IMG/VR virus record: IMGVR_UViG_3300001487_000119
Location: 64,001 to 128,000 of that record
Length of the DNA: 64,000 nucleotides
DNA from: a virus
Lineage: Duplodnaviria; Caudoviricetes
Strand: one strand, 5' to 3'
This document shows positions 14,010-63,246 of this stretch, piece after piece. A program made the translations under genes and the position numbers. The notes beneath the pieces are model-generated. The model worked only from the letters and a program-made list of their open reading frames with translations. It was not told the DNA's origin and made no database searches. Position 1 is the stretch's first letter, and each line of letters begins with the position of its first letter.

Positions 14010-14780
14010 TTACAAATTTATTACTGGACGAATTGGAAGCCCTTTGTAACGAGCGCACTAAGCACAAAAAATTTCAGGTTTTAATTTATTAGTATTAAAA
14101 TTTAATGTCATGCCATATTGCATATTATTAATTTTAGAATTAATAACTGTATTAGTCCAATAATTTCCATTTGTAGGATATTCATTTACATCTTTTTCTC
14201 CACATTTTTTACATGCTGGAAAAAATAATTCATTACCATTTTTCCCTATAAATAACCAGCCATCTAAATAATATACATTTCTATATTTTTCAACTGGTTT
14301 ATTTATTGTATTTTTTATTAATTCATTAAACTATTCAGGTGTTGGTATGCAAAACTTTAAATTACTATTCTAATACGCAGCATCATCTTCAGATAGTAAT
14401 GTATTTAAATTATCTTTATTATTATATTTAGTTAATTCTTTTCCAAATTTATATGTTTCCCATGAATATTCTGGCTTTGTCCCTAATTCTGTTTCACCCC
14501 AAGCAAAGTAATCACCATACCAATCTAAATATGTAGTATAATAAGGATCTTTATTTAAAAACCTCCAATCACACCCAAGATTATATTTACACCAAAGAGT
14601 TCCTGAAGGAAGTCCAAGATCAACTACTTCATTCATTAAATCTAACCATTCTTTAGTTCCACCTTTATACTTAACTTTACTACTAGTTTGACCTTGAATA
14701 TCATCTTGATCTTCAAAATCATCTAAAGCAAACTTAATGCCTCTATTAACAGCTTCTAATATTTTATTATAGTTTTTCAT
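14010..14780 (-). CDS. Leader-B + VDLGLPSG lectin-like domain protein (3 TAG)
   Basis: MKNYNKILEAVNRGIKFALDDF...VDLGLPSGTLWCKYNLG...GLPIRPVINL, ends TAA. Confidence 0.8.
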
Positions 14781-16759
14781 ATATTATTAATATCTTCCTT
14801 ATTTACAACAGCTCTTATTTGTAATCCAACACATCTATCAATATCTTTAATTGACGGTTTTACATTTTTGAATATATTTAATTCATATGCCATGTATTCT
14901 TTACCTTTAATATTTTCACATGCCCAATAATAACCGCCATATTTATAGATACTTAATTTATCTTTTTCCATAATATTTGTATATGGCATAAATAATTTTT
15001 CTTTATTAATTTTACTGATAAATGTAATACCGTTTAATCCTGTAATTCCTTGATAATCCTATTCAAATTTTATTTTAGTATTTTTTAATAATTCTTCAAA
15101 TTGTGCTTTTGATGGAATACAAAAATTAAAATTAAAAGATTTAGTTAATTTTTGAACAGCTGCATCATCATCTGGTATAAGCGTATTTAATTTATCAAAT
15201 CTGACATTATATTTAGGATTATTACCATATTTAGTTAATTTATCCCATGCACCGTTTGCATACTTATAAGTTGTCCAATCATATTGTGCTTTTGGTTCCA
15301 ATTCACCCCAAGCATAATAATTACCTATCCAATCTTTAGCATTATCTAATTTATCAATATTAACACCTAAATTATATTTGTGCCATAATGTTCCTGAAGG
15401 CAATCCTAAATCAACAACTTCTTTCTTTATATCTAAATATTCTTTCCAACTACCTTTATAATGGTTTGTTTTACTGCTAGATTGACCTTGAAGTTCTTCA
15501 TCATTATCAAAATCATCTAAAGCAAAACGAACATTATTATAATTAAATGATTCATTTAAATTTACTTTATTTTGATATGGACGTAATGTTACTTGCATTA
15601 TATAACATACTGTTGGAAATAAATTTTTCCATAAATAATTTTTGGGATCTGTTTTCTTTTTAAGATCAAATACGACAGGATCATTATTATTTAAAATAAA
15701 ATTAATATATAATTTCTTATTTTCAGCAAAATTAACTGTAAAATAAAAACCAAAATCAGTTTTTTCTAATCCAGTAATTTCAATAGTATCAACTAATGCA
15801 TCTTTTAATAATAATGTTCTTGTAATATTTTTATAAATTAATTTTTCATATTCTTTATTAAAATAGTCAAGTGCAAGATCAATACGTTTTTCTCTTGGCA
15901 CCGGTAAACGTCCAAGTGAATCTGTTTCTTCTCGGAAATATGTATATGGTATCATTAAAAAATGTAAATTCTAAATATATGTATTATATTCATTAATTTG
16001 TTCATTATATTCATCTATTTCATTTTCCGGATGATTGTTTATTTCTGCATAATTACGATTATCTTGCAAATCATCAACTAATTTTTGATAATGCTACTGT
16101 AATTTATAAAATTCTATATATTTTTTATTACTTTCACCTGTATTATATTTGTCATAACAATCATTTATAAAATCAACTAAATATTGTTCAAGATCCATTT
16201 TTATTTCATAGGTATCTTCTAATAACTTATTTTCAATTCCAATTTTATTATTTTCTTTGCTTTGTAATGAATTAGAATTTAAACTGTATTTTAATTCATA
16301 ATATTTTTTAACAGATTGATAACGTTCTAATAATGTTTTATCATTAGAAGACAAATCCAAACAATCTCTTGATTTAATATTAATTGTTGCCGCATTTTGT
16401 TTAATATATTGTGTAAATGTAGAACGTGTCTGAATTGTATTTTCTAAATATTCTAATAGATATTTAATAAAATTTTTAGGTTCATACATTAAAAATGATT
16501 CAAGATCCTGATACTTCTATGCACCATTTATCATTCCATAAAAATCATGAATATCATTTTGAGTATATTTAGTTTTATTATTTCTTAAATATTGAAGATA
16601 ACTATATATTTTTTTAATAATATTTTCAGATTTACCGCATTTTTCTTTTGGTAAACCATATTTTAAACCTACTTCTAATTTTTCTGATTTAGAAGGAACC
16701 TAATCTTTGATATGTAATAAATCTTGTCTAACTTCAAATTCTGAAATTTTATTTTCCAT
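14777..16759 (-). CDS. 660 aa protein: unknown N-terminus plus internal leader-B/VDLGLPSG module (5 TAG)
   Basis: ORFs 16094-16489, 15059-15955 and 14777-14989 share one frame and are separated only by TAG. Confidence 0.75.
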
Positions 16760-16869
16760 AATTTTATATATACATTTCTATTCAATATATTTATTAAAAC
16801 AAATGACTCTAGAAAAATCTAGAGTCATTCTTAAAAGAAGAATTTACTTATAATAATTACTCATCATAA

Positions 16870-17988
16870 TTATAGTATTTGTCCATTAAGAACATCATTC
16901 AAATCAAGTGCCATTGACGGAGCTGCTTGTTTCGGAGCTTCTGCACCTGTATTAAGCAATGCGTCAACATCCGGAATATTAGTAGGTTGGAAACCCGTAG
17001 GAGATGTTTGTGCAATGCCAAGTCCGTCAAGTCCAAATTGTGGTGCAGGTGCAGCTGGCATTTGAGGAGTTACCGGTGCAGCTGGCATTTGAGGAAGTTG
17101 AACAGGTGCTTGTGCAGTTTGAGCTGCCATTGGTTGTGTTGCAACTTGTGGTACACCTGGATTTTGAGCAGCTGCTGCAGCTTGAATAGATGCTTGAGGA
17201 TTAGAATAAATTCGAATACACTCATTTACAAATTCTGTTTCCTCTGTAGTCCAAGGATGATATTCATACTTGTCTGTATCAGGTGCATTCTCTTTAAGAT
17301 AATTGAATACTGCAGCCTTACCTTGTTCTGTTGCAATAGTAGCGGTAGTTACTACAGAAATTTGGGGTTGGCCTTGTGCATTATTTACTACAATACGCAT
17401 ACCTGATTGCTCAAGAGCTAAATCAAAGAATTGACATGCATCATAATTTGGAAAACCGCTAACCTCTTTTACTTGAACACTAAATGGACGTCCGGTAAAA
17501 AGATTGAATGGATTGTGTCCTTCACCCATAGGAGGATTCATTTCAGCATTAATCTTTTCTAAAATTTTAATTCCATATTTCCAAACTAAAATCTTATTAA
17601 CAAGGCTTGGATCTGACTTACAAGAAATAACCTGAACAAGTGAAACACATTGTTGCTTACGTGAAAATTGTTTAGAATTCTCTTGAAGAATAGGATTAGC
17701 AGCATTACGAAGTGCAAAGAATGTGTTTTGAATTGGATCTTGTTGACCAACTGTTGAAGGACAATCAATGTTCTTTTTTACTTGTGAAACCGGGTGAGTC
17801 AAATAAGCATAATACTTAGTAATAATAGACTTGTTTGCCGGATCCTTTGGATTAGGGAGGAAGCGAACTACTGCTTCAAAAACTCCATTTTGTCCTTTTT
17901 TAGGATTAGGACGAAACTCTGTTAATTGTGTTGGTTGTTGTTCTTGAACAACTGGTTTTGCATTAAAAAAATCATCAAAATTTTGCAT
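16870..17988 (-). CDS. Single-stranded DNA-binding protein (gp32-like)
   Basis: AVVRFLP, CPST, FNLFTGRPF..KEVSGFPNYD..F; low-complexity linker and acidic-hydrophobic tail. Confidence 0.85.
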   Translation of the reverse strand: MQNFDDFFNAKPVVQEQQPTQLTEFRPNPKKGQNGVFEAVVRFLPNPKDPANKSIITKYYAYLTHPVSQVKKNIDCPSTVGQQDPIQNTFFALRNAANPILQENSKQFSRKQQCVSLVQVISCKSDPSLVNKILVWKYGIKILEKINAEMNPPMGEGHNPFNLFTGRPFSVQVKEVSGFPNYDACQFFDLALEQSGMRIVVNNAQGQPQISVVTTATIATEQGKAAVFNYLKENAPDTDKYEYHPWTTEETEFVNECIRIYSNPQASIQAAAAAQNPGVPQVATQPMAAQTAQAPVQLPQMPAAPVTPQMPAAPAPQFGLDGLGIAQTSPTGFQPTNIPDVDALLNTGAEAPKQAAPSMALDLNDVLNGQIL

Positions 17989-21686: not shown

Positions 21687-21697
21687 AAACTTTTTAT

Positions 21698-27945: not shown

Positions 27946-27981
27946 AAATAAATATATTGATAACAAAAAAATATATAGAAT

Positions 27982-28647
27982 ATGAAAAGAGATAATAAAA
28001 AAGCTTTATATGAAAGCATTATGACTTCAGTAGCTAAAGAAGTTAAGAAAGTATTAAATGAATCAAATAATGAAGATGAAAATTTTGATTTTGATTCATG
28101 GGATGATTTAATGAATTATCTCAAAGATAATGATGCGTATGAAGGAATTGAAAAAATATTTGATTTGGTAGATGAGTTTGAAACTGAAGAAGGTAAGTAT
28201 GATAGGTATGGACAATGGCATAAGCCAAAATAGCATGAATGTGGAGAGTTGATTAATTGTTATACATATAAAGCATTAGCAGAATATATACGAGATACAT
28301 CTAAAGCATTGCTAAAAACTGCAGAAGTTATTGAAAATATGGAACCAACTATTCATATTAATTTGATAGATTTATGTCAAAATATTGTGAATAAATTTGA
28401 TATGAATGATTGGTGTGAATGGATAGATGAAGGTGATGATTCATTAATTTCATTATTAAATGCAAATGGAGTTATGGAGTTTTTAGAAAAAGAATATGGT
28501 GTAGATAATGAAGATTTAATATTATATATAAAAGATAATATTTATAAAATATGTGATTATTTACATGATTATGAACCAAGTGAACATGAATTAAAATCAT
28601 GGGGAAGGAAATATGGATATTCAAAATGGGGTCAAGATGAAGATTAA
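27982..28647 (+). CDS. Leader-A family protein, acidic cargo (1 TAG)
   Basis: MKRDNKKALYESIMTSVAKEVKKVLNE; joins the 28249 ORF. Confidence 0.78.
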
Positions 28648-28694
28648 ATAATAATATCTAAATAATTATAAAAACATAATTTAATTTTAAATAT

Positions 28695-29117
28695 ATGAAA
28701 AAAGATAATAAAAAAGCTTTATATGAAAGTATTATGACTTCAGTTGCTAAAGAAGTTAAGAAGGTATTAAATGAAGATGTTGAATATACAGAAGATGATG
28801 ATTATGAAGCTGAAGCTGAACAATATGGAATAATTTATTATAAAGATATAATAAAGTGGTTGTAGACGGAGGATAAATTTAATATAGAATTATATGCTAA
28901 TGATGTTGATGAAGCAGATTGTGCAGCAAAGTTATTTTTGAATTGGGAAAATCCAAGTCGTCCTGAATATTATTTTCATAAAATAGATCATAGTTGTGCA
29001 GTACTTGACGCTATTACTAATTTGTCAAATGAATTATTAAGTGGTTCATCAATTAATGACTTATATAATGAATATGGTGACTCTATATGTTTTAATATAA
29101 AGGATTATGATTATTAA
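28695..29117 (+). CDS. Leader-A family protein (1 TAG; missed by the ORF track)
   Basis: MKKDNKKALYESIMTSVAKEVKKVLNEDVEY...; ends TAA. Confidence 0.78.
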
Positions 29118-29157
29118 TTGATTTAAACAAAATAAAAATTATTTAAAATTTAATAAT

Positions 29158-29817
29158 ATGAAAAGAGATAATAAAAAAGCTTTATATGAAAGCATTATGA
29201 CTTCGGTGGCTAAAGAAGTTAAAAAGGTATTGAATGAATACAAAGGATCTGGCATAGTAGGTTCATTTAATAAAAATACAAATGGTGTAGTTGATCTTGG
29301 TTTACCTTCTGGAACATTATGGTGTAAATGTAATCTTGGAGCAAATACCGAAACTGAATATGGAGATTATTATTCATGGGGTGAATTAATTACCAAGTCC
29401 GAATATACTGAGGAAAATTATATGCATGATGATAATTTTAAACAACTTCCACCTGAATATGATGTAGCAACATAGACATTAGGTAAAAATTATTCAATAC
29501 CAACTAGAGAATAGTGTATTGAATTACTTGAATATACAAATAATGAATGGGTTCATGATTATAATAAATCTGGTGTAGATGGTTAGTTGTTTATTAGTAA
29601 AATAAATGGTAATAAATTGTTTATTCCTGCTGCAGGTGTTCGTATGAGATATAGCATTTATTATGATAATGATTGTTGTTATGTTTGGTCATCAAGTCTT
29701 GATACAGCTTACCCAGATGGTGCATGGTACATGTACTTTAATTATGACAAATATGTTCGCATAAACAGTAGCAGTCGTTACCACGGTCTTTCAGTTCGCC
29801 CAGTTTTTAAAAAATAA
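29158..29817 (+). CDS. Leader-A + VDLGLPSG lectin-like domain protein (3 TAG)
   Basis: Leader A, VDLGLPSGTLWCKCNLGA, IPTRE(Q), FIPAAG, WSSSL...GLSVRPV. Confidence 0.82.
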
Positions 29818-29952
29818 ATATATTGAAATATATATAACTTATTATAAATCAATCAATTAAGCAAAATTTTAATAATTTTGCTTAATTTTTTTGTAATAAA
29901 TAATAAAATAGTGAAAAACTATAACAAAAATATAAAAATAAATTAAAAATTT

Positions 29953-32900
29953 ATGGCAAAAAATCAAACAAAAGCTGTTTTAGACAACTTTAAAATTCAA
30001 TCTTATGTTGATAGTTTATTTGAGTCAAATGCAGGCAAAAATCAACGTTTGCAACATTTCTTAAGTGAATATCAAAAAGTTTTGGAACAAGGCAATGCTA
30101 AAGAATTTATGATTTATGAAGAATTCGGTCATGGTCTTGCCAATTTTGCTACTGGAAATAAGGCGGTCAAGAATGTTATTAATGAAATGAATACCAATCT
30201 TGCTACTTATGGAAAGGAGCTTAATACTTATAAGTTAATGGAATGCATTTGCGATGATGCAGCTAAATGCGCATGTGAAGACGCATATACAAATTATCTT
30301 GAATGTCAAGATGCAAAATCAAAAGCAATTCTTTGTGATGCTTGTGATGCACTTGAACAATCTGGTGATCCTGTTGCTCCGCAATTAACCATTGTTATTG
30401 CTAATCCTAATGCACAATTAGAACCTCAACAAATTACTACATTTGATAATGAGGGTAAATTCTCTGAGATTCAACGCAAAATTGAAGCTGATAAACTTCG
30501 TCAATCTGTAGAAGCTGCTAAAGCTGAAATTGATGCATATGCAGAAAAAGTTTATCAAGAAAAAGTTGCATAGGCAGAAGCAGAACGCAATGCTAATGTT
30601 TATGACAATATAGTTAATGCTAATGGAATTTGTTTAAGCGAATCTATTAAAAATATTATGAATTCTGAAGCAAAGACTAATAAAAAATTAGTTGAAACTC
30701 TTGAACAATATAAAGGTGCGTTGAATCAAGGACTTTATGAAGAACGCCTTTATGAAGGATTTATTAAAAACATTACTCCATTTAATTATCTTAAGTCTGT
30801 TGATAAAGAATTAAAACGTCTTGAAAAGGTTGCAGAAGATCATCAAACATCTATTAATATTACTAAGATATTAGAAGAAATGTATACTTCCGGTTCTTAT
30901 CATATTATTCCTTTAATTGAGGAAGATACTTGCAGATTTATTAAAAATCCTACAGATGTTAACTGCAATCAATTAAAGGCAGCATTAGCATCTTTTGCGT
31001 CTGATCCATATTGTCACGCAATTCTCGAAGAACTTGAATTATTTAATAGTACACCGGCATTTTTGGTTAATGATAAGACAATGACTATTAAAGATCGAGC
31101 CAGACTTATTAAAGAGCATGCTAATGTTTCTAATGTTTATTCTCCGGTTCAATATATTAAAGAGAATGAATGTGTATTTAATGTCAATGGCCAATTCTAT
31201 GTAAAGAAAGGCAATACACTTGCAAAGCTTTCTGAAGAATATGTTCCTCAATTATCTGAGAAATTTATTTCACTTTGCCAATTAGTTAATGATCCACGGG
31301 TAATTATGAATGAAGATCATATTACTTTAGTTGGCAATAACAAGATTGCAAATATTTATGAAAGCTATATTGATATTAATGGAAATAAAGAATCTATTGA
31401 GTCTGTTCGTAATTTAGGTGAAATGCAACTTAAATATGATTTTGATAATAACTTCTTTATTATGACTTCATGTTTGGCAGAAAACTTTAATAATATCGCT
31501 AATGTTAATTTTGCTAAACATATTGCATTAAATGAAGATGAAGGAATTAATATTGATTTGTTTAATTTAAGCGGAAATATTTTTGTTAATGCTGTTAATG
31601 AATCTATGTTAACTTCTACCTTCTATCACAATGTTAATCCTATCCAATGCCGTAATTTAATTAATAACCATATGGGTATTAATGTATCTTACTTATTTGA
31701 AGATCTTCTTCCATCTCAAGATAAAATGTATCTTAAACTCAATGAAACCAAAAATGAATATGAAGCGTCTATTGCTAAATATGAGGCTACTATTGAGAAA
31801 CTTAAGAAAGCTAAAGAAGATGATATTTCAGAAGACGGAGAAAAGAAACTTGATGCTGCTATTGAAGCTGCACAAGCTAAGGTTGACGAACTTAAGAAAG
31901 AATATAAAGATTGGCAAGATGATGTTGATAAAGTAACTAATCCTGAAAATAATAAAGATGAAAAATCTGAAAAGGATTCTGAGGCCGAAGATAATCAAGA
32001 TGATAATACTGAAGAAGAAAAGGCCAATGAACCAATTGATGCTGAAGATGTTGAAGCAGCTAAAGCAGATTTATCCACTCCGCTTTCTCAAGAAGCCGGT
32101 GATTTATCAGTATCTGATGATGAATTTGATTCTTATCTTGAAGGTGGTTCTGAAGTTTCCGGTGATGAAATGGATCCAACCGATGTTAATATGGCACATC
32201 ATGCATTAGCCGGTGACGGTAAAGAAAATGAAGAACCAAACCCAGATGAATTAGATGACCCAATGAGTAATAAAGAACTTCCAACAGAAGGTGATGAAGA
32301 AACATTACCACAAGTTAATACTGATGATGAAGATCCATTTGATACTGAAATTGGTAATGATGAAGAAACACCGGCTGAAGGTGATGAAAAAATTAATCCT
32401 GAAGAACCTATTGATTTTGAAGGTGATGAAAATGCTTCAGAAGAACCTGAATCTGATGTAACTAGTGAACCAAGTGAAGAACCAATTGATGCTGAAGGTA
32501 CTGATGTTTCAACAGAAGTTGATGGTGTTAGTATTCCAGAAGGTTATAAAATTGCAAATATTAAATTTGATGAAAATCTTAAAACTGGCGAATTATTCAG
32601 AACTGGTAGTATTACTGTGATGGTTGATATGGTTGATGGTGCTGGTAAAGTTTATACTGAATCAAATAACTATCATTTCTATATTGATGAAGAAACACAT
32701 CTTCCTGTTATTGATGCAGCAGATATTCCTGTAGCTCTTTACAATGCATTAGTTTCTTCTATTCAATCTGATTCACAATTTACTAAAGCCGATACTGAAG
32801 GTAAAGACGGTGGCGCAGAGACATTCGATTCTGATAAAAAAGATTTCCCAGATTATGATGAAATTTATTATAATGCAGATGATGTTAATGATGCTTCTGA

Positions 32901-37415: not shown

Positions 37416-37489
37416 TTTTTGTATTTTTATATTTTATATGTGAGAAGACACTAATTAAAGTGTCTTCTCTTTTTAATAAATATATTGAT

Positions 37490-42373: not shown

Positions 42374-45300
42374 ATGAAAAAAATTCTTCTCTTTTTATCT
42401 TTTCTCTTAATGAGTATTGGAATGTGGGGCGCCACTGAAACAGCGACTTTTACACCATCTAACTTCACAGGACAAGGCACAAGCGGAACAGGTTCTGCGA
42501 TTAGTGCAACAGTAGACGGAGTTACATTTTCATGTGATAAAGGTTATGGGGCCGCTCAGATAAGGTGTTATAGCGGGAGTAAAATCACAATTTCTTCTAC
42601 GAATACGATAACGGCAATTTTCTTTACTTTCAGTGACTCACGTACGGGTGGGTTGGAGACATTATATACAAGTTTAAGTACTACATCATGGTAGAAAACT
42701 CTTTCATCTCAAGCAAGAATAACAGAATTGATTGTGACATATTTAGATTCTTCACCAACTATATATACTGTCTCATTTAATAATGCAATTGGTGAAAATC
42801 CATCGCCAATAAAACAACCAAATTACATGATAGGGATCGAACTACCCATACCTACATTTAATTCTGCATGTGAAAATGATGGATGGGTATTTGCAGGATG
42901 GAGTGAAAGCAACTCAGATTATTCATCTCTAAAAACTGGTACATATATGCCAGAAAAAGATACAACTTTATATGCTGTTTATAAAAAGAGTGAAGGAGAA
43001 AATAAATGGGTAAAACTTACAAGTGATACTCTGTTATCTAATGGTATGAAAGTCGTTATTGTTGCACCAGAATGTAATATGGCATTATACCATGAGACTA
43101 TTTCATCTAGTTATTGCAAATATTGGAACTTTAATATAAACAATATTGATAATGATATAAAAAATTATCTTACAATATTTAATTCAGAAATAAATGGAGA
43201 ATGGTATTTTGGAGATAATACAAATGGTTGGTTATATAATTCAAGCAGTAATAATTTAAAATTCGATGAAACATACAAAAGTAGTTGGGATTTAGAATAC
43301 ACTAATAATAAATTTTCAATAACAACAAATTCTAAATGTTTATCATGTAGAACAGATTTAAATGGTGATAATCAATATAAATTTAGAATGGGAGGCAATG
43401 CATGTAATGTTGGTGAACATGAGTTTGATATATATGCAAAAATTCGATCAATATCATATTCATTTAATCCATCATGTTGTGAGAATATTATTACAATAAA
43501 CAAATTTCCAACAGAAATCGGTTCATTTGATTTAAGCACAAATACTGTATGTGGTGATGGTGATGGTGGAGAAGTTGAAATTATAAATATAGTTCCAGAT
43601 GATGGTTATATGCTAGATACTATTTTTGCAGTTGATACTGTAAATATGAGTATTGTTGGTACAACAAATATGGCTGAACATAAAATTACTGGAATTAAAA
43701 CCAATTGTGTGGTAGTTGTAGTATTTACACCACTTCCACCAGAACCAGAAATAGAAATTGTTGAGTGGAATCCAGATTATATAAAAGTGGGTATTGATAA
43801 TTTTGATGCAGTAACCGCGGTTATTGAAAATAAGAATACACAAGAGGTACATGAAAATAATGTTGCAACAGAATTGTTTTTTAGTAAATATTTTGAAGCT
43901 GAGACAACAATTAAGATGCTAGGAATTTATAATGGGAAGCAAGACTCATTAAATTTATCTGATTATACAATAAAGGCCGGGGATGGTACTAAAGGGACAT
44001 CTTGGGAAAAGATATATGATTTATCAAATTTGGGTTGGATTCATTCTGGAGAAGAAATAATATTATATTCATACTCTGATGATGCAAACACAACTACCGT
44101 CATTAATTGTATTAATAGTCATGGTGCTGGTTTTAGTAAATATATACGAGTTAAAACAGGTGGAATTGTTAATGGTTCACTAACATTTAATGGAGATGAT
44201 GCTATTGGATTGTTTAAAAATGATAAACTAATCGATATAATTGGTGCCGGAACTTCTGATGCAATCTGCGTTACCGGATTAAAGGGAAAAACAAATGGTA
44301 AAGATAAAGACACAATAATGTACAATACACACCATATTGATAATTATTGCTGGATAACAGATACAGCCGATAACACTAATGGTTATAGCAATGTTATTGC
44401 TACCGATTTATGCCTTCTTATTAGAAAATCAAATGTTCATTCAGGAGATAGTGCAGTTAAGTATAATACAACAGATTTTGTTACATTGGGTAGAGAATGG
44501 TTTGGAAAATTAGTTTCTAAAAAAGATTCATCAACATGTAAAAATTTTGATTATGTTGGTACATTCAATTACAATGAACATTACTCACAATATACTCAAG
44601 TTGGTGATAAAATTTTATTAGCTAAAATTGATTCTGATGGTTCATATAAAATATCAATTCCTGATTTGGACACCTTATCGTGTACATATTTAAAAGTCAT
44701 AGTTAATGATGATTCTAATAATTCAGAAGAGTGTGAATATAAAATTCCTATATTTGTGACAGAAAATACAAATTCCAATTCATTAATCTCTCAAGAAGGT
44801 GATGATTGTCCAGAATGTGATGTTGTTATTATTAAAGGCGGTAAATTAACAGTTAATTCTAATTTAACAAACAGAGATGTAACAGTATATCCAGGTGGAG
44901 TTTTAATTATTCCATCAGATCAAACTTATAAAGTTAATTCTTTAACACTTCGTCGAGATAATGATTCTATTCCATATTTTTCATATAAAGGAACATTAAA
45001 TACTAAAAAATTTAATATTGATTTAAGAACTGATGCAGAAGATTGGAGATGGATGACATTACCGTTTACAATTCATACTGACAGTATTAAATTATCTAAT
45101 GGGAAACCAATTAATTTGAATAATAATGTTTGGATTTCATATTATGATGGAAAACACCGTTCAATATATCAAAAAAATGCATGGAAAGATATTTATAAAG
45201 ATACAGTATTTAATGCAGGTGAAGGATTTTTATTTGGTGTTGATCTCCCAGGAAAATCTAAGAAAATTTACAGATTCCCATTTAATAAAGATTCTATTGA

Positions 45301-46222
45301 ACATGAAAAATCAGATAAAATTATTAGAAACCTATATGCATGGGGAGGAAATAATGAAAATCTAGCACCTAATCATAAAGGATGGAATCTAATTGGAAAC
45401 CCATTTATGGATGCTGATACTACAGATATTATAAAACCAATTAGAATTGGAAGATTGAAAAAAGATTCTGTTAATGGACAGTGGACTGGTGGTTGGGTAT
45501 CTGATACAATTGAAGATACACATGGTAAAAAATTGCGTTATGCTGTTATTCCTAATAAAAATGAAGAATTTGCAGATGCAGGATATTATGAATCAGTTGT
45601 TTTAGATGACTACATATTAAAACCATTAACTTCATTCTTTGTTCAAATTAGTGGAAATGAAAGTGATATGCAAACATTAACATTTGAATCAGAAAAAAGA
45701 ACAAATAGAATAGTTGCAAGAAGAACTCCAATTAATGAAAAAGATGAAGAATTATTCTTAAGAATCAAAATAGGGAACAAAAAAACTGGTTGCTTTATAT
45801 CTAATCATTTTAATAAAAACTACGAACCAGGGGATGATTTAGAGTCACGGTATACATATTATCAGTTAATTAATGGATATAAATTATTATATTCTGCAAT
45901 AAATGATTCTATTATTGAGAATGGAGTTCAAATCCACTCGCTTGGTGGAAAAGTAACATTAGATCCAAAAGTTGAAACTGAAAAATTTGAATAGATTTAT
46001 ATTCTTTATAATAATGAGTGGTATGATTTATTGCATGGTGATGAACCAGAAGTTTTAGGCGATTTTATATTATATGGAAAAAGAAAAATTCAAGAAGATA
46101 TTCCAACAGATATCGGTAATATAAAACCTGGCCAAGGAACATTTAAATTTATAAACAAAGATAATGTTTATATAAACAATAAAGGAAAGATTTATAATAT
46201 ATTTGGTTCACAAATAAAATAA
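42374..46222 (+). CDS. Large Bacteroidetes-type surface protein, 1282 aa, lamin-tail-like domain and T9SS-like CTD (2 TAG)
   Basis: Signal MKKILLFLSFLLMSIGMWG; ELFFSKYFE...FNGDDAIGL...IDIIG; GWNLIGNPF; C-terminus PTDIGNI...KFINKDNVYINNKGKIYNIFGSQIK. Confidence 0.7.
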
Positions 46223-52966: not shown

Positions 52967-55900
52967 ATGAAGATTTTAAAGCAGAAATATCATGGCCTTC
53001 CAGGTTTAGGAATTAACGGAAAAATCGGTGAATAGGGTGTTAAGGCTGAATCTATTTATATGGGCTATATAAATGATTTTTTTGATGGTGAAGATATTAG
53101 TGTTGGTACACTTATTTATGCAGCTAAACGAACATTCAATCATCCAAATGCTAGTACACTAGATGCATCTACTATAGAAGCAGCGTGGGCTGTTACTTAG
53201 CAAGAATTAAATGTTTTTCATACTCCTAATACTATATTAAAGAGTGCTGTTGAAAATTCTAGTAACAGCTCAACTTCATATATTAATTTTAAAACATTTT
53301 ATTATACTGGAACACGTTTAACAGATGATAAAATTGTTGATGACATATTTTCAGGTAATAGTTCAATATCTGATGCAAGTCTTGCAAAATTTGTTGAATT
53401 AGATTTAACTGGTGATTTTATTTCAATGTCATTTATGTTAAAAACTGCAGATAATCCTGAAAATAATTTAGATTTTAAACAATATAAATCTGAATATGAT
53501 ACAAAATTAAGTAATATGGATACTCATGATTTTTCACAATAGGGTCATGAAATTTATAATGAATACAATATTACTGATGAAAAAACATATAGAAAATTTG
53601 ATGATTCTGCCATAATATATGGAAAATTTTATGATGATTAGAATGATAGATATTTAATATATTTGCCATATGATACAAATGATGCAATATATAAATCATC
53701 TTCTGCAGCAGGAATAGCTGCAGAAGACGGAAGTTTATTATTAAATGAACAATATAGAAACTATTATGAAAATCATGGTGAATTTAATTATGTTAAAGAA
53801 TATATACCAAATAATAATGATTTATTACTTACAGATGTAAACACACATTATGCTAAATTAGATTCTAGTAAATTAGAAACCAGCATATTTTATGGTGATA
53901 ACAATATTAGCTTTTTAATTAACGGTGTTGAAACCGGTGATAAAGCATATTGGAATGAATTTTATAAAACATCATTTACTGCAAAAATATTATCAAAAAG
54001 CACATTAATACCTAATTATAGTTTGTATCAAGATGATGATTTATTAGACAGCGAAAATAATGCATTTTATGGTGTAGCATCACCGGTATTATTTAATAAT
54101 AAAGGTGATAGTAGCATATCAATTAATAATGAAGGTATTAATAAAATAAGTTCGCTTATTACAGATCCTGATTATATACAAAGAATAATTGACGGTAAAA
54201 ATAATGTTAATATATTATTAAATGACAAAAATGGTTTAAATATATTTTATTCTTTGAATGATACAGAAAGCTCATTATTTGTTCCGTCTACATTAAGCAG
54301 TTACTATAAACCAGGTGATGTATTATATTTTTATGCAGATAGTTATGCATTTAATAATATTAGTGATCAAAATTATAAAAATATAATGTATATGGTAGTA
54401 TTAACTGAAGATTTAATGGGTTGTACGCCATTACAATTAATGAGTGCAGCATAGTTAATATCACCGCTAGAAATTAAAAACTTTTCATTTAACAATAATA
54501 ACCGTGTTTGCAACTATAATAATATTGCCGTATTATTAAATGACACATCTGTTTCAAATAATACTAAAAAATTAGCATTATCTAATAAATCATATATTGG
54601 TATTGCTGATAATTATACAGATGCACCGGTTATATTAGCCGCTAAAGATGGTTCTATATTTAATAATTTTGTGGCTGTAGATTCTAGCGTTGCATTAAAT
54701 GGTAATGTTAGTAATAATTTATTTAATATTGATGTATCTGATAATATACCTATTAAATTAAATAATCTTAATATTGTATCAAATAATATAACCGAAGAAA
54801 CAAATGTTGAATTATATAATCATATATATGATTCAAATATTAAGTTTGATAATGAAAAATTTATTAAACCTCTATTAGATTTAGATTTATATTATGATAC
54901 TAATAATACAGCATTATTATCATAGACATTAAACGGTTCTGATTATTTTTATGATATTGAAAATTTATATGGTTATTTTTACGGCTGTGATATTTATAAT
55001 AGTGATATGAAAAAGATACAAACTATTACAAGTATCGATAAAATGTTAACAATTGATTTAATTCCTGATGTAAATAATACTGTTTATTATTTCCAAATGT
55101 TTGCATCATGCAGTAATAGTTTAAAATATTACAGTAAATTAACATAGCTTACATTAACATATAAATTAAATAAGTATTATGGTGAAGAAAAAGAAATAAA
55201 AATATTAGATAGAACATATTATAGTAGTCCGATAGGACAATTTTCAACAGTTATTAAAAAGAAAAAAATGCCAAAAAGAAGAACAGTAACAGAACGATAT
55301 GAAATTGATAAAATTAAAATTGAATTATTAGGATTAGATCAACATATTGTTAAAGAACAAAAATTTGGAAATATATTCTTTGATTTAACTGATATTAATG
55401 CGGAAAAAGTAGATGCTTCATTATTTGTATATACAGAAGATCCATCTATTATAATTGATGATATATTATTTAATCATAGGAGCTGTGAATATAATGAAGA
55501 TATTAAGGTTAATAATTGGTCTATTATTACACCAAATACCGATTCAGGATTAGATGCATCTGTATTTAATATTGATTTAAGTTCAAATCTTCCGGCATTT
55601 AATAATTCAACCGGTATATGTAAAAATATTCAAGAATATATTATATTAGGTTCTGAACATATTGAAGAAAATAGTAATAATAGTGAATCAAAATTATTTA
55701 ATTTATTAAGCAATTCAAATTATATTAAGCCGGCAAGTATGCAAAGATCTATATTGGTTACTGCAAAATACCATTATAAAGATCATCCATATGAATATTA
55801 CTATGAAAATTATAATATAGTTCAACCAGGATTTAAAGATACTCGTGATGTACCTGTATTTGAATTAAACACACATACTTCAATACATGAATTAGAATCA

Positions 55901-57943
55901 TATAATTCAATAGATAATGGTGTCCTTAATAACCAATTTGTAACATACATTGATATTAATATTAAAGATTTCAAAAAATAGTGGGGATAGTTTATAGTTG
56001 ATCCGTCTATTAAAATTTCAATGGATGTTAGTATTGCTAATATTGATTATGATTTAAATTGGCAATATAATTATATTGTTGAGCAATTAACATCTCGCCG
56101 TACATTTAAAGTAATTTTGGAAGATATTGATTCATCCATAACTAAACTTAATAATTATGTAAAATTAACAACATCATTATTTGAAACCAGCAATAATTTA
56201 TTAACAAAAAATACTAATAATTGTAATAGTATAAACGGTAGTTTAAATTGTGGTGGTAGTTATAATATTGATTCAAGCTTTATATTATATAATACACCGG
56301 ATAATACTAAAGGAATAAAACCATTAATTGTCGATAATTATATTTTATGTGATAAGCAATTTATAGATATTCATAAAAATTCTAATTTAATGTATAATGG
56401 TTTACAAAATAATATAATGATTGGATTATCTGATATACCTATTTCAGATGATATTGATACAATTAAACTTAAATTATCATTGGAAATGGGTAATCCGATG
56501 TTAGCTAATATGTATTTTAGATTTGTTGTTAAACATATTAATATAAAAGTTAATATTGATAATAGCGATACTCCTAGTATATTTACAACATTTGTTCCAA
56601 ATACATTTAATGTTGATACAAAAAATACATATTTGGCTAATATATATGCAGATGTTAATACTTCACGTAAAATTAATCGTGTAAATTATAAATATATTTC
56701 AAACCCGATAGATATAACATTTAATCCGTTATCATATACAGTTTGTCCGAATGATGCCGAAACTACATATACAAATATATATGGCAGTTTAGACAAGTAC
56801 GGTATTAAAGATCAAATCAAGAAAGAACTTAAATTCTTTAATTCATCTGTATATGAGCATAATCCATATAATTATACAGGAAAACAAATACGTGAACATA
56901 GCTATTATCCGTTTAATAATCTTTATATTAAAAAATCTTATATACAAGATAATGTTAAGGCTATTAATGTAAAACCTGTTTCATTATGGGATGTAATTCA
57001 AAAAACAAATTTAACAACATTATCTTCTAGTATTAATGAAGAATTAAAGCAACATAATGTTTTAGATTTTATTGAAGGTAACAAATATTTAAGTATTGTA
57101 TATAATTCTGTTATTATGTCACCGAGAATTAGAAATGACAAATATTGTTTCTATTATAATGATAATTTATATCCGCGTGCTAAATATGATCAAAAAGTTA
57201 ATAATATGCCTGTATTTGCATATGATACACAGTCTATAGAATTACGTGATGACATTTTAATTAATTCAATGGATAAATGGAATGATTATTATACAGAACA
57301 TAAAACTTTTGATTCTGAAAAAGCATATCATGGTGTTTTAAGTTTATATGGTAATGGTTATACTCAAATAGTAGATGATATCAGCACTGATATATTTAAT
57401 GAATATGTTATGGATCTTAAGAAAGTAAAAAATCAAAATGATGTATCTATTAATTTATATTCCGGAATTAATGAAGTTGATATCAATCCGATGAAACAAG
57501 ATCAACCGAATAATAAAGAATATTTTAGAGGGTTCTTATATGATATAAACTGGGAATTCCCATATTATGATAATAAAAATGAAATAATTCCATATAGAAT
57601 AGTATCACCATTTGATAATTTCTTAAATAATACTAGTACTAATATTCAAGAAATTTATCAAGATTATTATAATGCATTAACAGACTTAACAGATGCTTCA
57701 TATGGCACTAATATGGTTCCATCTAATTTATTATTTGATATTAATCCGCGTATTGCATATAATTTTGAAAATAATGGTGTAAATGTTTTAATGTTAAGAC
57801 GCCCATCTATTGGAACTGATACTGATAATATTAGTACTTCTACAGATTTTAAAGAAAAATATGAATTTAATAATCAGTTATTTGATTTAGTATCTGCAAT
57901 AGAAAAATTATCATCACCATATATTATAAAATCAAATGAATAA
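52967..57943 (+). CDS. Very large Asn-rich protein, 1658 aa, probably virion structural (9 TAG)
   Basis: ORFs 53663, 54671, 55268 and 56021 all in frame with ATG 52967 and separated only by TAG; collagen-like GLPGLGINGKIGE(Q)G start; late-type promoter. Confidence 0.72.
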
Positions 57944-58246
57944 AATAACTGAATTAAATTATATTAAATTTGAAAATAGATAACTAATGCATTAAACCAG
58001 GATTCTGTAAATCGAAGACAACATCATTAATCAGAATGAATTTCAGATATTGAAATAAACTTCATTATTAAAATAATAAAACCACTAAACATACTTTAAA
58101 TGCTTAGTGGTTTTTGTTTGTTTATATTAAATTTAAAATAAATCTATTAACCGGAATAACTAACATTAGTTATTTTATGATAGGTTGAGAAAAAAGTTTT
58201 TTTGCAGTGAAAATAAATATATTGATAACAAAAAATATATAGAATA

Positions 58247-58951
58247 ATGAAAAGAGATAATAAAAAAGCTTTATATGAAAGCATTATGACTTCTATAGCT
58301 AAAGAAGTTAAAAAAGCATTAAATGAATATGATAGTTGGACTACTACAACATTGGATGTGATAACATAGGATGAAGAACAATCTGATGCTGATTTTGTAG
58401 ATTTGGGACTATCAGTTAAGTGGGCTAAGTATAATTTAGGTGCAACACCAGGTAAAAATGCTAAAGATTGGTATGGTGATTTTTATGCATGGGGTGAAAC
58501 TGAACCAAAATTAGATTATAAAATGAATAATTATAAATTAAACAATTATAATGACAAATATCATTAGGGTAAAAAGATGGTTCTTGATCCTAATGATGAT
58601 GCTGCGACTGTTAATTATGGCAAACCTTGGAGAATGCCAACAAAAGAAGAAATAAGAGAATTATTAAAACATACTACTAATCGTTGGGTTACTAATTATA
58701 AAGGAATTAAAGGATTAAATGGCCGATTATTTATTAGTAAAATAAACGGTAATTCAATTTTTATTCCTGCGGCTGGTTATTGTGAAGGTTCTGATATTAA
58801 TGATGTTGGTTCTTATTGCTACCTATGGTCTTCAAGTCTTAATTTAGACTACACATATGATGCATACTACTTTGACTTTAATTCAGACCATATTATTGCG
58901 TTAAGCTGCAATCGTTGCGATGGTTTTTCAGTTCGTCCTGTCATGGCTTAA
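58247..58951 (+). CDS. Leader-A + VDLGL lectin-like domain protein (2 TAG)
   Basis: MKRDNKKALYESIMTSIAKEVKKALNE...FVDLGLSVKWAKYNLGA...WRMPT...GFSVRPVMA. Confidence 0.82.
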
Positions 58952-58980
58952 GGATTTACTACTCACTGAAAATAAGAAAT

Positions 58981-59030
58981 AAAAATGGTGAAACTGCTGG
59001 TTCAAACCCGTATAAAGTTTCACCATTTTT
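58981..59030. terminator. 15-bp stem hairpin with 20-nt loop
   Basis: aaaaatggtgaaact / agtttcaccattttt. Confidence 0.6.
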
Positions 59031-59095
59031 CTATTTAATAACTAATAAACAATATCATAAAACCGTTATATAATAATAAAATAATAAAGGCTTTA

Positions 59096-60718
59096 GTGCA
59101 AATTGATATAACATATGACAATCAATATTTGGTATGCAATTCAGATTATCCTTATGAACTACAGCTATTAAAGAATTTTTTGACAAGGGAAATTTCTAAT
59201 GCTTGGTTACTTAAGAAAAAGATGCCTTATATTAATACTGAACGCTGTTTTATAAATGAATATGGAATGGTGCCGGTTGGTTTATGGTTAGAAGTTCTTC
59301 AATTTTGCAAGCAATTTAATATTTCTGCAAATTTAACAGAAAATACTACAAATTATATTAATCAATTCCAATTAGATTATCAGGCTTTTCACATTTATAT
59401 AGATGATATGTTCAATGGTGCTGAAATGCCTATTAAAGATGATGACGGAAATATAGAATGTTATGTGCCATTTAAACCTCATGAATATCAAATTAAAGCT
59501 GCATATACTCTAATTAAATATAGAAAAGCTTGCGGAGAAATATCTACTTCAGGCGGAAAAACTCTTATATCATTTATATTATTTAAATATTTTATTGATA
59601 TGGGAGTTAAAAAAGTTTTATATATAGTTCCATCTGTTGATTTAGCAAATCAATCTGCAGAAAAATATGAATTATATGAATCATATCTTAAAAAGCATAA
59701 ACACAATTGGGAAATTGGAGTATTACATTCCGGTTTAACTAAAAAAGAAAGAGAAAAAGTAGAATCATGTAATGTTTTATTTAGCACTTTTCAATCTTTA
59801 AATAGAAAAGAAAATGAATTTTTTAAAGATTTTGGAGCATGTATAAATGACGAAACACACCATGCATCAGCTGCTACTGTAAAAAAGACATTATCTAAAT
59901 GTGTTAATTTACGATATTCTATAGGTGTAACAGGAACATTTCCGAAACCTAATACTATTGAAAATATTGAAATTCAATCATATATTGGCCCTGTTGTTTA
60001 TAAATTAACTTCAGATCAATTAATTAATGAAGAACATGCGGCTACCCCAATTTATATAGTTTTTCAAATTATGAATTGGGGAACACAAGATGAAAAACGT
60101 CAACTTTATTATAATAGAGCGCAAAAAGCTAATAATGAAGATGATATGCAACTTGGAAATAAATTATTAAAACAAGAGCAAGAATTTGTTAATAATTCGT
60201 ATACTCGATTGAAATTTATTGGAGATTTGGCAATTAAAATGGCTAAAAATACTCTTATAATATTCGGAGATGTTAAAGGCGGATACGGAAAAAAGATTAT
60301 GGAATATATAAAAGAGAATTCTGATAAGAATGTCTATTATGTAGATGGAAATACACCAAATGAAAATCGAGAATATTATAAAAAATGTATGGCGGAAGAT
60401 ACTACTGGAAAAACAATAATTGTCGGAAGTATAGGAACATTCGGGGAAGGTCTGGATATTGGAAATTTGGAATCTATATTCTTAGTTAATTCAGCAAAAT
60501 CAGATAGAATGGTTAGACAAGTTGTTGGACGTGGTTTACGTAATGCATCCGGAAAAGAAAAATGTATTTTATATGATTTTGTAGATGATTTAAGATATAG
60601 TGAAGATAAGAAAAAACGATATTATGACAATTATATGTGGGCTCACTATAAAACCAGAAAAGGAATTTATACTGAACAACATTTTCCGACATATGAACAA
60701 AAATATGATTTTAAATAA
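59096..60718 (+). CDS. uvsW: UvsW-like SF2 DNA helicase
   Basis: YQ, STSGGKT, IVPS, STFQSL, DETH, GVTGT, GEGLD, QVVGRGLR, YDFVDD. Confidence 0.9.
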   Translation: MQIDITYDNQYLVCNSDYPYELQLLKNFLTREISNAWLLKKKMPYINTERCFINEYGMVPVGLWLEVLQFCKQFNISANLTENTTNYINQFQLDYQAFHIYIDDMFNGAEMPIKDDDGNIECYVPFKPHEYQIKAAYTLIKYRKACGEISTSGGKTLISFILFKYFIDMGVKKVLYIVPSVDLANQSAEKYELYESYLKKHKHNWEIGVLHSGLTKKEREKVESCNVLFSTFQSLNRKENEFFKDFGACINDETHHASAATVKKTLSKCVNLRYSIGVTGTFPKPNTIENIEIQSYIGPVVYKLTSDQLINEEHAATPIYIVFQIMNWGTQDEKRQLYYNRAQKANNEDDMQLGNKLLKQEQEFVNNSYTRLKFIGDLAIKMAKNTLIIFGDVKGGYGKKIMEYIKENSDKNVYYVDGNTPNENREYYKKCMAEDTTGKTIIVGSIGTFGEGLDIGNLESIFLVNSAKSDRMVRQVVGRGLRNASGKEKCILYDFVDDLRYSEDKKKRYYDNYMWAHYKTRKGIYTEQHFPTYEQKYDFK

Positions 60719-60749: not shown

Positions 60750-61556
60750 TTATAATTTTATTACCGGACGAATTGGTAATCCGCATAACCTACTTTCAGC
60801 AATATATTGCCAATAACCTTTATATATAGTTAAAATTTCTAATTCATTATTATCACCATCCCATGTAGAAATTGGACCTGATATCCAATATTCAATATGG
60901 CCATCAGCTAAAGCTGGTTTAGAACCAAAACTAGTATGTCCGCTAGCAGGTAAAAATAATGTATTCCCATTAATTTTACTAATTAATAATGCGCCATACA
61001 GCTAATTAATATTATTGTATTTTCGTTTATATTTAACTGTTGTATATTTTTTTAATTCTTCAAACTATTGCATAGTTGGCATATAAAATTTAAAGTTATG
61101 TAAATGCATATTTTGGTAAGCAGCATCATCTTCTGGCAGCAAATAATCTAAATTATCTATATTTGATTTATCATATTTTGTTTTTACATTAAATGCATAT
61201 TTTGTTAACTAATAAATTCTACCAAATTTATAATTATCCCAATTATATTCCGGTTTATTTGCTTCAATCTCACCCCATGCATAATAATCACCACGCCAAT
61301 CTTCTGAATTAGACTATTCTGGATGATTATTTAATAATTCATAATCACATCCTAAATTGTATTTGCACCACAGAGTTCCAGATGGTAGTCCAAGATCAAC
61401 TACGTTATTCATTAAATCTAAATACTCTTTAGTTCCATCTTGATGATTAACTTTGCTATTAGACTGCCCTTGAATATCTTCTTGATCTTCATAGTCATCT
61501 AATGCAAATTTAATTCCTCTATTAACAGCTTCTAATATTTTATTATAATTTTTCAT
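60750..61556 (-). CDS. Leader-B + VDLGLPSG domain protein (4 TAG)
   Basis: Read-through to GLPIRPVIKL, ends TAA. Confidence 0.8.
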
Positions 61557-61563
61557 AATTAAT

Positions 61564-62367
61564 TTATAAATTTATTACCGGGCGAATATTAAACCCGTTA
61601 GCACGACTGACAATATTATCGCCATATCTATTGGAATTGAAAAAACAATAGTAAGCCCAGCGAGCATCAGATAAGAAAAGACTCGAAGACCACAATAAAC
61701 AAGCAGAACCAACATTTCCACATGAATCACCGGCTGCCGGGATAAACAACTAATTTCCGTTTTTCTTTCCTTCAAAAACTCTGCCGTTCAATCCTTGAAT
61801 TCCGCTATCATCTTCATGATTATGTATAGTTTTATTAGGATCATAATTATTAACCCAATAGTTTTTAGTGCAATTTCCTAATTCTTCAAACTATTCTTTA
61901 GTCGGAATATGAAATTTAAAATTATATAATTTTTTATTCTAGTAAGCTGCATCATCTTCTGGTAATAATTCAGATAAATTATCAGTAAAACCATTTAAAC
62001 CAACATCAGGAACATTACAATATTTAGTTAAAGATCCATCAAAATAATCATTTCCAAATTTATAATTATCCCAATTATATTCCGGTTTATTTCCTTCTAA
62101 TTCACCCCATGCATAGTATTTTCCATACCAGTCTTCTGGATTAGTTAACTGGTTTGGATTAACATCTAAGTTATACTTGCACCATAAGGTTCCTGAAGGA
62201 AGATCCAAATCTACCACTTCTTTCATTAAATCTAAATATTCATTCATTCCACCCTAATATTTAACTTTGCTGTTAACTTGACCTTGAAGTTCATTATCTT
62301 CAAAATCATCCAATGCAAATTTAATTCCTCTATTAATAGCTTCTAATATTTTATTATAATTTTTCAT
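61564..62367 (-). CDS. Leader-B + VDLGLPSG domain protein (4 TAG)
   Basis: KVKY(Q)GG matches KVKYQGG of the paralog at 38167; ends GFNIRPVINL. Confidence 0.82.
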
Positions 62368-62376
62368 TTAATTAAT

Positions 62377-63246
62377 TTATAAATTTATTACTGGGCGAAT
62401 ATTATAACCAGTACAACGATAATTAGTGTAAATATCGAAATTGTCTGAATAGAAGCATAAAGAGTAAGCATGGTTGGGACATTCTAAATAAAGAGTTGAA
62501 GACCATAAGTAAATATAATAATCAACATTATTAACACTATCGCCAATATAATAACCAGCTGCAGGAATAAATAACTAATTTCCATTCTTTCCTTCAAATA
62601 TTCTGCCATTCAAACCTTTAATTCCACCATCATTTTTTGGATTATGAATAGTTTTATTTGGATTATAATTTTTAACCTAATAATTACTTGTATATTTTAT
62701 TAGTTCTTCACACTATTCTTTAGTCGGTATACGGAATTTAAAATTATGGCATTTTTTAAATTGATAAGCAGCATCATCTTCTGGAAGAAGTTCAGTTAAA
62801 TTATCTGCAAATTGTGTATATGGATAATTTTCATTATTGTCTATTCTTTTAACTCCATCTTCTTTTTTACTACAATATTTAGTCATTTTTTCTAAATATG
62901 GACGTTTACCAGAATATTTATAATTAGCCCAACCGAAATAACTTTTACCATCTTTGTTTGTTTTATTTCCTTCTAATTCACCCCAAGCATAATATTTACC
63001 ATACCAGTTTTTAGCTTTAGTTAATTGATTAGAATTAACATCAAGATTATATTTACACCATAAAGTTCCAGAAGGAAGCCCCAAATCAACGACTTCTTCC
63101 ATTAAATCCAACCATTCTTTGGTTCCATATTGATAATTAACTTTACTATTAGTTTGACCTTGAAGTTCATCTTGATTATCAAAGTCATCTAAAGCAAACT
63201 TAATACCTCTATTGACAGCTTCTAATATTTGTTTATAATTCTTCAT
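62377..63246 (-). CDS. Leader-B + VDLGLPSG domain protein (3 TAG)
   Basis: Read-through to FIPAAG...WSSTL...GYNIRPVINL. Confidence 0.82.

Follow-up and report, generated by a model that had tools for sequence, protein, structure and literature searches.

The closest described counterpart of the system treated here is the capsid targeting sequence (CTS) of phage T4, which, according to the T4 literature, consists of the first 10 residues of a protein (MKTYQEFIAE), with residues 4 and 7 serving targeting and residues 8 and 10 directing processing (Asp10 blocks cutting, not targeting). The CTS is described as the only thing that the diverse internal proteins of T4 have in common, and gp21-type proteases are described as cutting C-terminal to Glu in short motifs. 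Here, a comparable family of N-terminal leaders, leader B, is described from a 64,000-nt stretch of viral DNA (the window, that is, bases 64001-128000 of the record IMGVR_UViG_3300001487_000119, a single virus record of 204,228 bp; 27.8% G+C), together with a second family, leader A. Leader B precedes otherwise unrelated proteins (its cargos), and its reading as an addressing tag is plausible, since it is N-terminal, apparently lies outside the cargo fold, is strongly constrained, belongs to a TAG-rich and putatively late gene class, and occurs in a lineage with a T4-type head. By analogy, it may be a head-targeting tag of the T4 CTS kind, a reading that we favour tentatively.

The record, classed as linear and ~41% complete, is, judging from its gene content, a fragment of a Lak-like, T4-related, TAG-recoded megaphage. 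This placement rests on its capsid protein, tail sheath, recombinase and other assignments, and on its genetic code. The capsid protein (record positions 57433-59352, minus strand) matches Pfam Gp23 (PF07068) with 75.9 bits, and shares ~61% identity with its counterparts in the Prevotella Lak megaphages of 540-550 kb. With TAG read as a sense codon, the residues contained in open reading frames (ORFs) of at least 300 amino acids rise from 8,919 to 12,788, and the longest ORF of the window grows from 1,099 to 1,660 codons, while translation table 11 leaves frames broken. The record also carries a tRNA with anticodon CTA (167827-167902). TAG was read as glutamine in the translations of the window.

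Leader B in the window and beyond

The preliminary description of this DNA had named nine loci as carriers of leader B, and all nine have it once TAG is read as glutamine. They are listed here with two leader-A genes of the window whose cargos are of the same lectin-like type.

14010-14780, minus strand: leader B with a C-type-lectin-like (FISUMP/DUF1566-like) cargo; 256 amino acids, 3 in-frame TAG
14777-16828, minus strand: fusion gene of 683 amino acids, with an N-terminal part of ~418 amino acids of unknown type, an internal leader B and a lectin-like cargo
34807-36042, minus strand: leader-B variant (KILKS..ISFALDDF..QGQ) with a cargo of ~370 amino acids; a 411-amino-acid protein
37490-38173, plus strand: leader B with DUF285 repeats; first gene of its array
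38167-38892, plus strand: leader B with a lectin-like cargo
38892-39662, plus strand: leader-B variant (EILKK..LAFALDDF..QGQ), spacer of ~70 amino acids, divergent lectin-like cargo
60750-63246, minus strand: tandem array of three leader-B lectin-like genes (62377-63246, 61564-62367 and 60750-61556)
29158-29817, plus strand: leader A (ending LNE) with a lectin-like cargo; Lcl_C 17.9 bits, below the cut-off
58247-58951, plus strand: leader A with a lectin-like cargo; directly downstream of a 1658-amino-acid ORF (52967-57943)

In the whole record, leader B was found in 21 of 726 ORFs, at the N-terminus in 20 of these, with profile domain E-values of 6e-10 to 2e-27 that exclude chance, membership itself being circular because the profile was built from the genome's own copies. 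Across the nine window copies the invariant columns are F17, A18, L19, D20, D21, Q29, G30, Q31 and K35. The hydrophobic stripe of the amphipathic helix runs Y4-I7-V11-I15-L19, with Asn12 invariant and Gly14 nearly invariant at mid-helix. Among the best 120 homologs of the full protein, A-[LI]-D-[DN]-[FYI] is kept in 119 and I-L-E-A (the equivalent of residues 7-10) in 113, and Tyr4 is kept in 98 of 119. The initial emphasis on a QGQ..NSKV signature has to be given up: the core of the tag is the helix with its acidic run, and the part after the helix varies among 119 homologs, reading Q-G-Q in 76, K-S-K-Q in 28 and otherwise in 15.

The internal leader of the fusion gene (15455-15574) is degenerate, with FALDDF and QGQ..SK kept and MKNY..ILEA lost; the decay in this natural fusion is a hint that a free N-terminus is needed by the first 10-15 residues.

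With the full leader-B protein as query, 6,275 database proteins were found at E <= 0.001, none with a name or a Pfam domain, and some of them on contigs of up to 491 kb. The nine-leader profile found 160 matches at E <= 0.001 among 1.84 billion representative proteins, and in 143 of the best 150 of these 160 the leader lies within 8 residues of the N-terminus. A tblastn search of the phage collection with the 40-amino-acid leader B gave no match. Five related virus records were searched for both leaders. The two nearest, G001 and G002, have capsid proteins 82% and 81% identical to that of the record studied here and contain 8 and 30 leader-B matches, respectively, while the search gave no leader B for the other three, Lak-type genomes that are more distant. 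The leader-B profile likewise found none in Lak-C1, the matches of the same profile in G001 and G002 serving as positive control. Leader A is present in four of the five relatives (10, 16, 15 and 9 matches) and, by tblastn, in all 15 Lak records. As leader B is confined to the two nearest relatives and leader A is widespread, this distribution indicates that leader B is a young, clade-specific expansion and leader A is older.

A conserved helix on exchangeable cargos

An AlphaFold2 model of the protein encoded at 14010-14780 (39 aligned sequences, paralogs and database homologs together; mean predicted local distance difference test score, pLDDT, 82.9) places a helix at residues 4-22 with a pLDDT of ~55, gives values below 50 for residues 19-37, and ends in a compact domain (~50-256) that is mostly above 90. 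Similarly, the 411-amino-acid protein (pLDDT 81) has a helix at residues 2-21, values below 50 over residues 1-44 and a confident remainder. Given a low-confidence helix, a disordered stretch at 19-37 and a confident domain, the leader is predicted to be a free helix on a flexible acidic tether, outside the cargo fold.

Selection on the two parts was compared on 10 of the 13 canonical paralogs, three being dropped for indels at the start. In helix codons the synonymous divergence (pS) is 0.47 and the non-synonymous divergence (pN) 0.05, a ratio of 0.11, and in cargo codons the values are 0.56, 0.35 and 0.63. Purifying selection is thus about six-fold stronger on the tag than on the cargo, and non-synonymous change seven-fold lower. 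Because the silent sites of the helix have diverged almost as much as those of the cargo, it is the peptide, not the DNA or RNA, that is conserved: selection on it is strong, and recent gene conversion or a constraint at the mRNA level is ruled out.

All-against-all BLASTP of the parts behind the leaders divides the leader-B cargos into four classes without a link between them, namely 15 VDLGLPSG domains, 4 DUF285 proteins and 2 singletons (the 411-amino-acid protein and a 706-amino-acid protein outside the window). Behind leader A there are 2 VDLGLPSG cargos, one pair, and 14 without a relative in the set. The DUF285 assignment of the cargo at 37490-38173 is firm (PF03382, E 1.1e-39, 135.3 bits against a cut-off of 25), and a further gene at record positions 138199-138837 matches the same family with 50.5 bits. 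As first noted, the cargo of 34807-36042 is of another kind: no Pfam or NCBIfam family matched it. Its best match among Protein Data Bank (PDB) representatives has a Z of 3.9, giving no recognisable fold, and in BFVD there is one uncharacterised match (E 4.7e-4, TM 0.11); 17 of the 22 homologs of this protein have a leader-B-like N-terminus. Pfam, PHROGs and NCBIfam gave no match for most leader-A cargos, nor for the 706- or 1658-amino-acid proteins.

The preliminary description had proposed that leaders and cargos recombine independently, and three observations bear this out: one leader stands on four cargo classes, the VDLGL cargo does occur behind leader A as well (29158-29817 and 58247-58951), and the database protein P0001 has a cargo identical to that of 14010-14780 (204/204 residues) behind a leader and linker of a different sub-type, 58% identical. 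Over the 78 pairs of the 13 paralogs, mean identity is 79% for the leader and 47% for the cargo. The proposed comparison of leader and cargo phylogenies was answered in part: the two identities are uncorrelated (Spearman -0.09, p 0.45), but the cargo tree is star-like, with 0 of 14 inner branches well supported and exchange events not countable. In this tree the cargo of 38892-39662 forms a long branch, and the two leader-A cargos group with B_147793 at 81/88, which is compatible with one origin.

Leader A, a common promoter-like motif and the head genes

Leader A, of the form MK..KKALYESIMTSVAKEVKKxLNE, was found on 18 ORFs of the record. In 17 of 17 copies the end is L-N-E, the exact point at which conservation ceases. 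The N-termini of the 10 capsid proteins compared (47-100% identity) all have L-N-E in one and the same place, between flanks that vary. Matches to Peptidase_S77 (PF03420, the family of T4 gp21) that pass the cut-off were found in Lak-C1, in G001 and G002, in a Lak-type genome and in one further relative. In G001 and G002 (E ~1e-16) this family forms the N-terminal domain of a protease-scaffold protein of ~595 amino acids; the protein starts ..SPLKKLNE, and more [LIV]-N-E sites follow behind its protease domain. Leader A thus has the look of a T4-type propeptide that can be cleaved, its LNE end being common to the capsid and protease sites and Glu being the residue behind which gp21-type proteases cut. 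The genes in G002 come in the order protease-scaffold protein, leader-A gene, leader-B array.

When the profiles of the two leaders are aligned (hhalign; probability 52%, E 1.5e-4), the Tyr, Ile and L-D-D of B pair with the Tyr, Ile and L-N-E of A. Taken together with a promoter-like motif common to both, this weak alignment suggests that leader B may be a derived variant of the leader-A system rather than an independent second tag. The exact copies of this motif in the window are as follows.

27948-27961, plus strand: promoter-like 14-mer ATAAATATATTGAT, upstream of the leader-A array 27982-29817
8722-8735: exact copy
37476-37489: exact copy, abutting the ATG of the first array gene
58213-58226: exact copy
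63247-63260, minus strand: exact copy, abutting the ATG of the first array gene

All 9 exact copies in the genome lie directly upstream of leader-A or leader-B genes, and a copy with one mismatch (16781-16794, minus strand) lies by the gene 14777-16828. With at most one mismatch, the genome has 28 copies against 2.7 in shuffles, and the window 10 against 1.11 expected. The motif probably marks a dedicated promoter class. It stands ~20 nt upstream of leader-A genes and abuts the ATG of leader-B genes, and because of this abutment it would imply leaderless or near-leaderless leader-B mRNAs. Its core AATAAATA, which may resemble the T4 late promoter TATAAATA, occurs in the 70 nt preceding the start of 10/17 leader-A genes, 8/21 leader-B genes, 20/51 further genes with TAG and 12/111 genes without it, and in 1.6% of random windows.

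Codon usage sets the same genes apart. In-frame TAG was found in every leader-B gene (21/21), at 10.2 per 1000 codons, and in leader-A genes at 5.3 per 1000; 51 of 162 other genes contain it, at 3.6 per 1000. The replication genes have zero in-frame TAG, which is concentrated in putative late genes.

Some further proteins may bear on head assembly. A leader-A-like protein (record positions 5856-6809, 317 amino acids) has an internal leader-A-like stretch and a C-terminus similar to capsid residues 34-141 (BLASTP E 9e-12), with INE and LNE aligned; it may be a head-core or capsid-mimicking protein. The leader-A array is directly followed by a gene for a protein of 1166 amino acids (29953-33453), with the promoter-like motif, in a copy with one mismatch, at 29814-29827. 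The N-terminal half of this protein is coiled-coil-like and its C-terminal half extremely acidic and of low complexity; no family was found for it, and it is possibly a scaffold-like or internal protein. An ORF of 132 amino acids (record positions 156941-157339) is 36% identical over 42 amino acids (E 0.002) to part of the Lak-C1 prohead protease domain and may be a degenerate protease paralog. SPN3US gp117 has been reported as such a degenerate paralog.

Where the tag may lead

How would a short helix act as an address? We propose a portable N-terminal tag, consisting of a 19-residue amphipathic helix and a following acidic flexible stretch, which would bind a common partner during late virion assembly and dock its cargo on the prohead scaffolding core around a T4-type protease-scaffold protein, so that the head would come to contain a repertoire of 20 to >30 binding proteins, C-type-lectin-like, DUF285 and other. 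A candidate site for cutting by a gp21-type protease is I-L-E-A at residues 7-10. Most of the tag would nevertheless probably stay on the mature protein, because the position aligned to the LNE of leader A reads LDD. The head-core route appears the most likely one in view of the kinship with leader A, the common promoter-like motif, the T4-type head machinery of just those genomes that have the tag, and the MK-x-Y..I-L-E-A start. A complex prediction for leader B (P0013, residues 1-60) and the G002 protease-scaffold protein (570 residues, table 11) returned a score of 0.00; run without controls, it weighs neither way.

Several findings speak against a head tag of the T4 kind. Peptidase_S77 was not found in the record itself, which is 41% complete, and the profile match between the two leaders is weak (52%). 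The lineage's own putative cleavage sites have Asn at P2 (LNE, VNE, INE), which ILE lacks; the T4 cleavage logo is L/I-x-E. In 2 of the 9 window copies, K stands in place of E9. Conservation of leader B continues to about residue 36, and the conserved block, extending 13-30 residues beyond ILE, ends in L-D-D, without a Glu motif. The leader-B cargos are mostly acidic (median isoelectric point 5.4), whereas T4 internal proteins are basic, and C-type-lectin folds and DUF285 are domains usually found on surfaces. The 706-amino-acid conserved protein, which has a leader-B-like N-terminus (E 4e-6 against a profile excluding it), is encoded beside a baseplate wedge gene. Finally, genes of the DUF1566/FISUMP type (Fib_succ_major) in Bacteroides phages have been described as varied by diversity-generating retroelements (DGRs) and presumed to be determinants of tropism.

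The last of these points bring in the nature of the cargos, and with it a second reading. No PDB entry matched the lectin-like model at E <= 0.001 in Foldseek, and VIA-align returned almost exclusively proteins with a C-type-lectin fold, with Z values of 6.2-7.5 that are middling (<8) over a uniform list. The best is the C-terminal domain of Legionella Lcl (Z 7.5, root-mean-square deviation (rmsd) 3.5, 113 residues), followed by that of Bdellovibrio Bd2740 (Z 7.3) and by Mtd, a receptor binder from a phage (Z 6.5). Also on the list are formylglycine-enzyme-like proteins, many animal C-type-lectin-like domains (CTLDs), and TvpA and TaqVP, both varied by retroelements. Curated families were not reached: the best scores are those of 58247-58951, with 27.1 bits for Lcl_C (PF07603; cut-off 34.9) and 19.2 for FISUMP (TIGR02145; cut-off 41.65), and neither family matched in the five leader-B lectin-like proteins scanned. 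As the uniform fold list agrees with the sub-threshold Lcl_C and FISUMP matches of the leader-A copies, the VDLGLPSG cargo is predicted to have a lectin-type fold, with sequence scores below the curated cut-offs.

Such cargos would suit an external docking peptide: interchangeable adhesins (lectin-like, DUF285) would share a single socket, on the tail, the baseplate, a fibre or the outside of the capsid, and each virion would show a mixture taken from a germline-encoded set of receptor binders. Receptor-binding proteins are usually built with a conserved N-terminus and a variable C-terminus, and the matches to Lcl, Mtd, TvpA and TaqVP point the same way. So do the presumed tropism genes of Bacteroides phages, the leader-B-like start in the baseplate wedge gene cluster and the position of the leader-A lectin gene 58247-58951 behind the 1658-amino-acid ORF, which, by eye from its sequence, has a glycine-rich, fibre-resembling start. 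A single 19-residue helix is, however, far smaller than known anchor domains, the 21 to >30 genes are scattered, with replication genes included among their neighbours, and no fibre or baseplate family matched the 1658- or the 706-amino-acid protein. Moreover, the end motif of leader A, common to the capsid propeptide and the protease, points to the head. We regard external docking as the main rival reading, somewhat less likely than the head route.

Two candidates raised by the cargos were set aside. An M-x-E before VVDLG was tried as a junction cleavage site and rejected: its E is present in 64 of 120 homologs, and the segment is a confidently modelled helix of the domain. In this partial record (204 kb, 41% complete) the lectin-like cargos do not qualify as targets of a DGR: reverse transcriptase PF00078 was not found, and no repeat search was made.

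An amphipathic helix that stands free, is modelled with low confidence in the monomer and precedes a lectin-fold domain could also serve as an oligomerisation neck, as in collectins and tetranectin, or direct late proteins to an intracellular partner outside the virion. Tetranectin, a coiled coil with a CTLD, is among the fold matches (from residue 9, Z 6.2, rmsd 6.0), and near-identical helices on 21 paralogs would permit mixed oligomers. The helix is short, though, with Asn12 and Gly14 mid-way and ~20 disordered residues before the domain, the same helix stands on unrelated cargos, and a neck would not require its strictly N-terminal place; we consider these roles improbable. Hardly credible, lastly, is a leader without any addressing role, left by common descent, gene conversion or 5' mRNA constraint in tandem duplicates: many copies do stand in tandem arrays with conserved junctions, the motif abutting the first ATG of each array, but the silent divergence of the helix, close to that of the cargo, with its seven-fold lower non-synonymous change, and the retention of the tag on orthologs of unrelated cargo families in other phages largely refute it.

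Surrounding genes

Further assignments in the window are the following.

337-1884: DNA polymerase piece
3654-5324: SbcC-like protein
9323-12637: tail sheath
16870-17988: gp32-like protein
36144-37415: UvsX-like recombinase
59096-60718: helicase

A 24-kb part of the window had no megablast match in the phage collection. Elsewhere in the record, the ORF at 42740-43846 reads by eye like a class-I release factor with a GGQ motif. Within the window, the 1282-amino-acid product of 42374-46222 has a signal-peptide-like start (MKKILLFLSFLLMSIGMWG) and weak matches to Listeria-Bacteroides repeat and lamin-tail domains, and has the appearance of a phage-encoded secreted or surface protein. Two adjacent giant proteins of 682 and 1614 amino acids (record positions 128871-135775), with 5 and 19 in-frame TAG, have an N-terminal endolysin-like domain in common (phrog_894, E 1e-33 and 5e-21) and are probably virion-borne wall hydrolases or tape-measure-like proteins. 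ARAGORN called a tmRNA-like gene with an odd tag peptide at L016 3290-3686, which may be a false call in AT-rich DNA.

Implications of a shared tag

No Lak-type megaphage has been cultured, although the group is widespread in the guts of humans and animals, and of the ~500 genes of such a phage most lack an assigned role. A recognisable tag would give a shared fate to 21 leader-B and 18 leader-A genes of the ~227 genes of this fragment, marking them as proteins that travel with the particle, and would offer a simple experimental handle. Combined with fast-diversifying lectin-fold cargos, a frozen tag could be a second route to binding diversity in gut phages, besides mutagenesis by retroelements. 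A further step, which we consider unlikely as matters stand, would be a germline library of 20 to >30 lectin-fold and DUF285 binders with one tag and one assembly partner, giving each particle a mixed load or decoration. If true, such a library would be comparable, in a virus, to an innate receptor repertoire and would stand as an alternative to DGRs. Were the binders carried inside the head and injected, they could act as pre-made neutralisers of varied host defence proteins, in a much enlarged and largely uncleaved form of the T4 internal-protein system. Should a largely uncleaved tag work here on the T4 principle, this would broaden the view of how large capsids select proteins.

Comparison with known systems

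With Mtd of BPP-1, DGR variable proteins, DUF1566/FISUMP proteins and Lcl, the lectin-like cargo has its predicted fold in common, as well as the principle of a variable sequence on a fixed scaffold; unlike in DGR systems, the diversity of leader-B cargos comes from many germline paralogs. In the anchor-branch systems of Klebsiella and SP6/K1-5-type phages and in the T2-type gp38, a small conserved N-terminal piece attaches an exchangeable binding module; these systems involve one to few proteins per phage, and their partner domains are known. Within the same genome, leader A resembles leader B in its hydrophobic spacing (Y, I, V, V/I, L), in the same exact promoter-like motif and in the possibility of a lectin-like cargo, and differs from it in its invariant L-N-E end and its mostly small, unique and often very acidic cargos.

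Giant phages such as SPN3US, phiKZ and 201phi2-1 reportedly have families of head-protein paralogs with shared N-terminal propeptides that are cut at x-X-E by a gp21-like protease. Their propeptides are often longer than 100 residues, and the proteins have been detected in virions by mass spectrometry. For Lak-type phages or megaphages, no description of such leaders was found in the literature on capsid targeting, supplements not being covered.

The T4 CTS (IPI, IPII, IPIII and Alt, removed by gp21) is, like leader B, a short portable N-terminal tag on unrelated cargos. Both have an MK-x-Y start, a hydrophobic residue 7 and an I-x-E-A motif, and both lineages have a gp23-type capsid protein and an S77 protease, the latter seen in relatives of the present phage. 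The likeness in length and in a final I-x-E that the preliminary description had pointed out therefore stands in part: the I-x-E is there, at residues 7-9 rather than 8-10 as in T4, within a block of 22 to ~40 residues instead of 10 that ends in L-D-D without Glu. In charge, the analogy with T4 internal proteins was dropped, the cargos not being basic. Leader B further departs from T4 in its 21 to >30 copies against a handful, and in its acidic lectin-like and DUF285 cargos against small basic ones. By analogy, the addressing principle itself would be one that T4 and the giant phages, with their families of processed head proteins, have already shown; what is new is the form of the tag, a longer and probably largely uncleaved helix, present in one clade in 21 to >30 copies and carrying mainly lectin-fold cargos that diversify fast.

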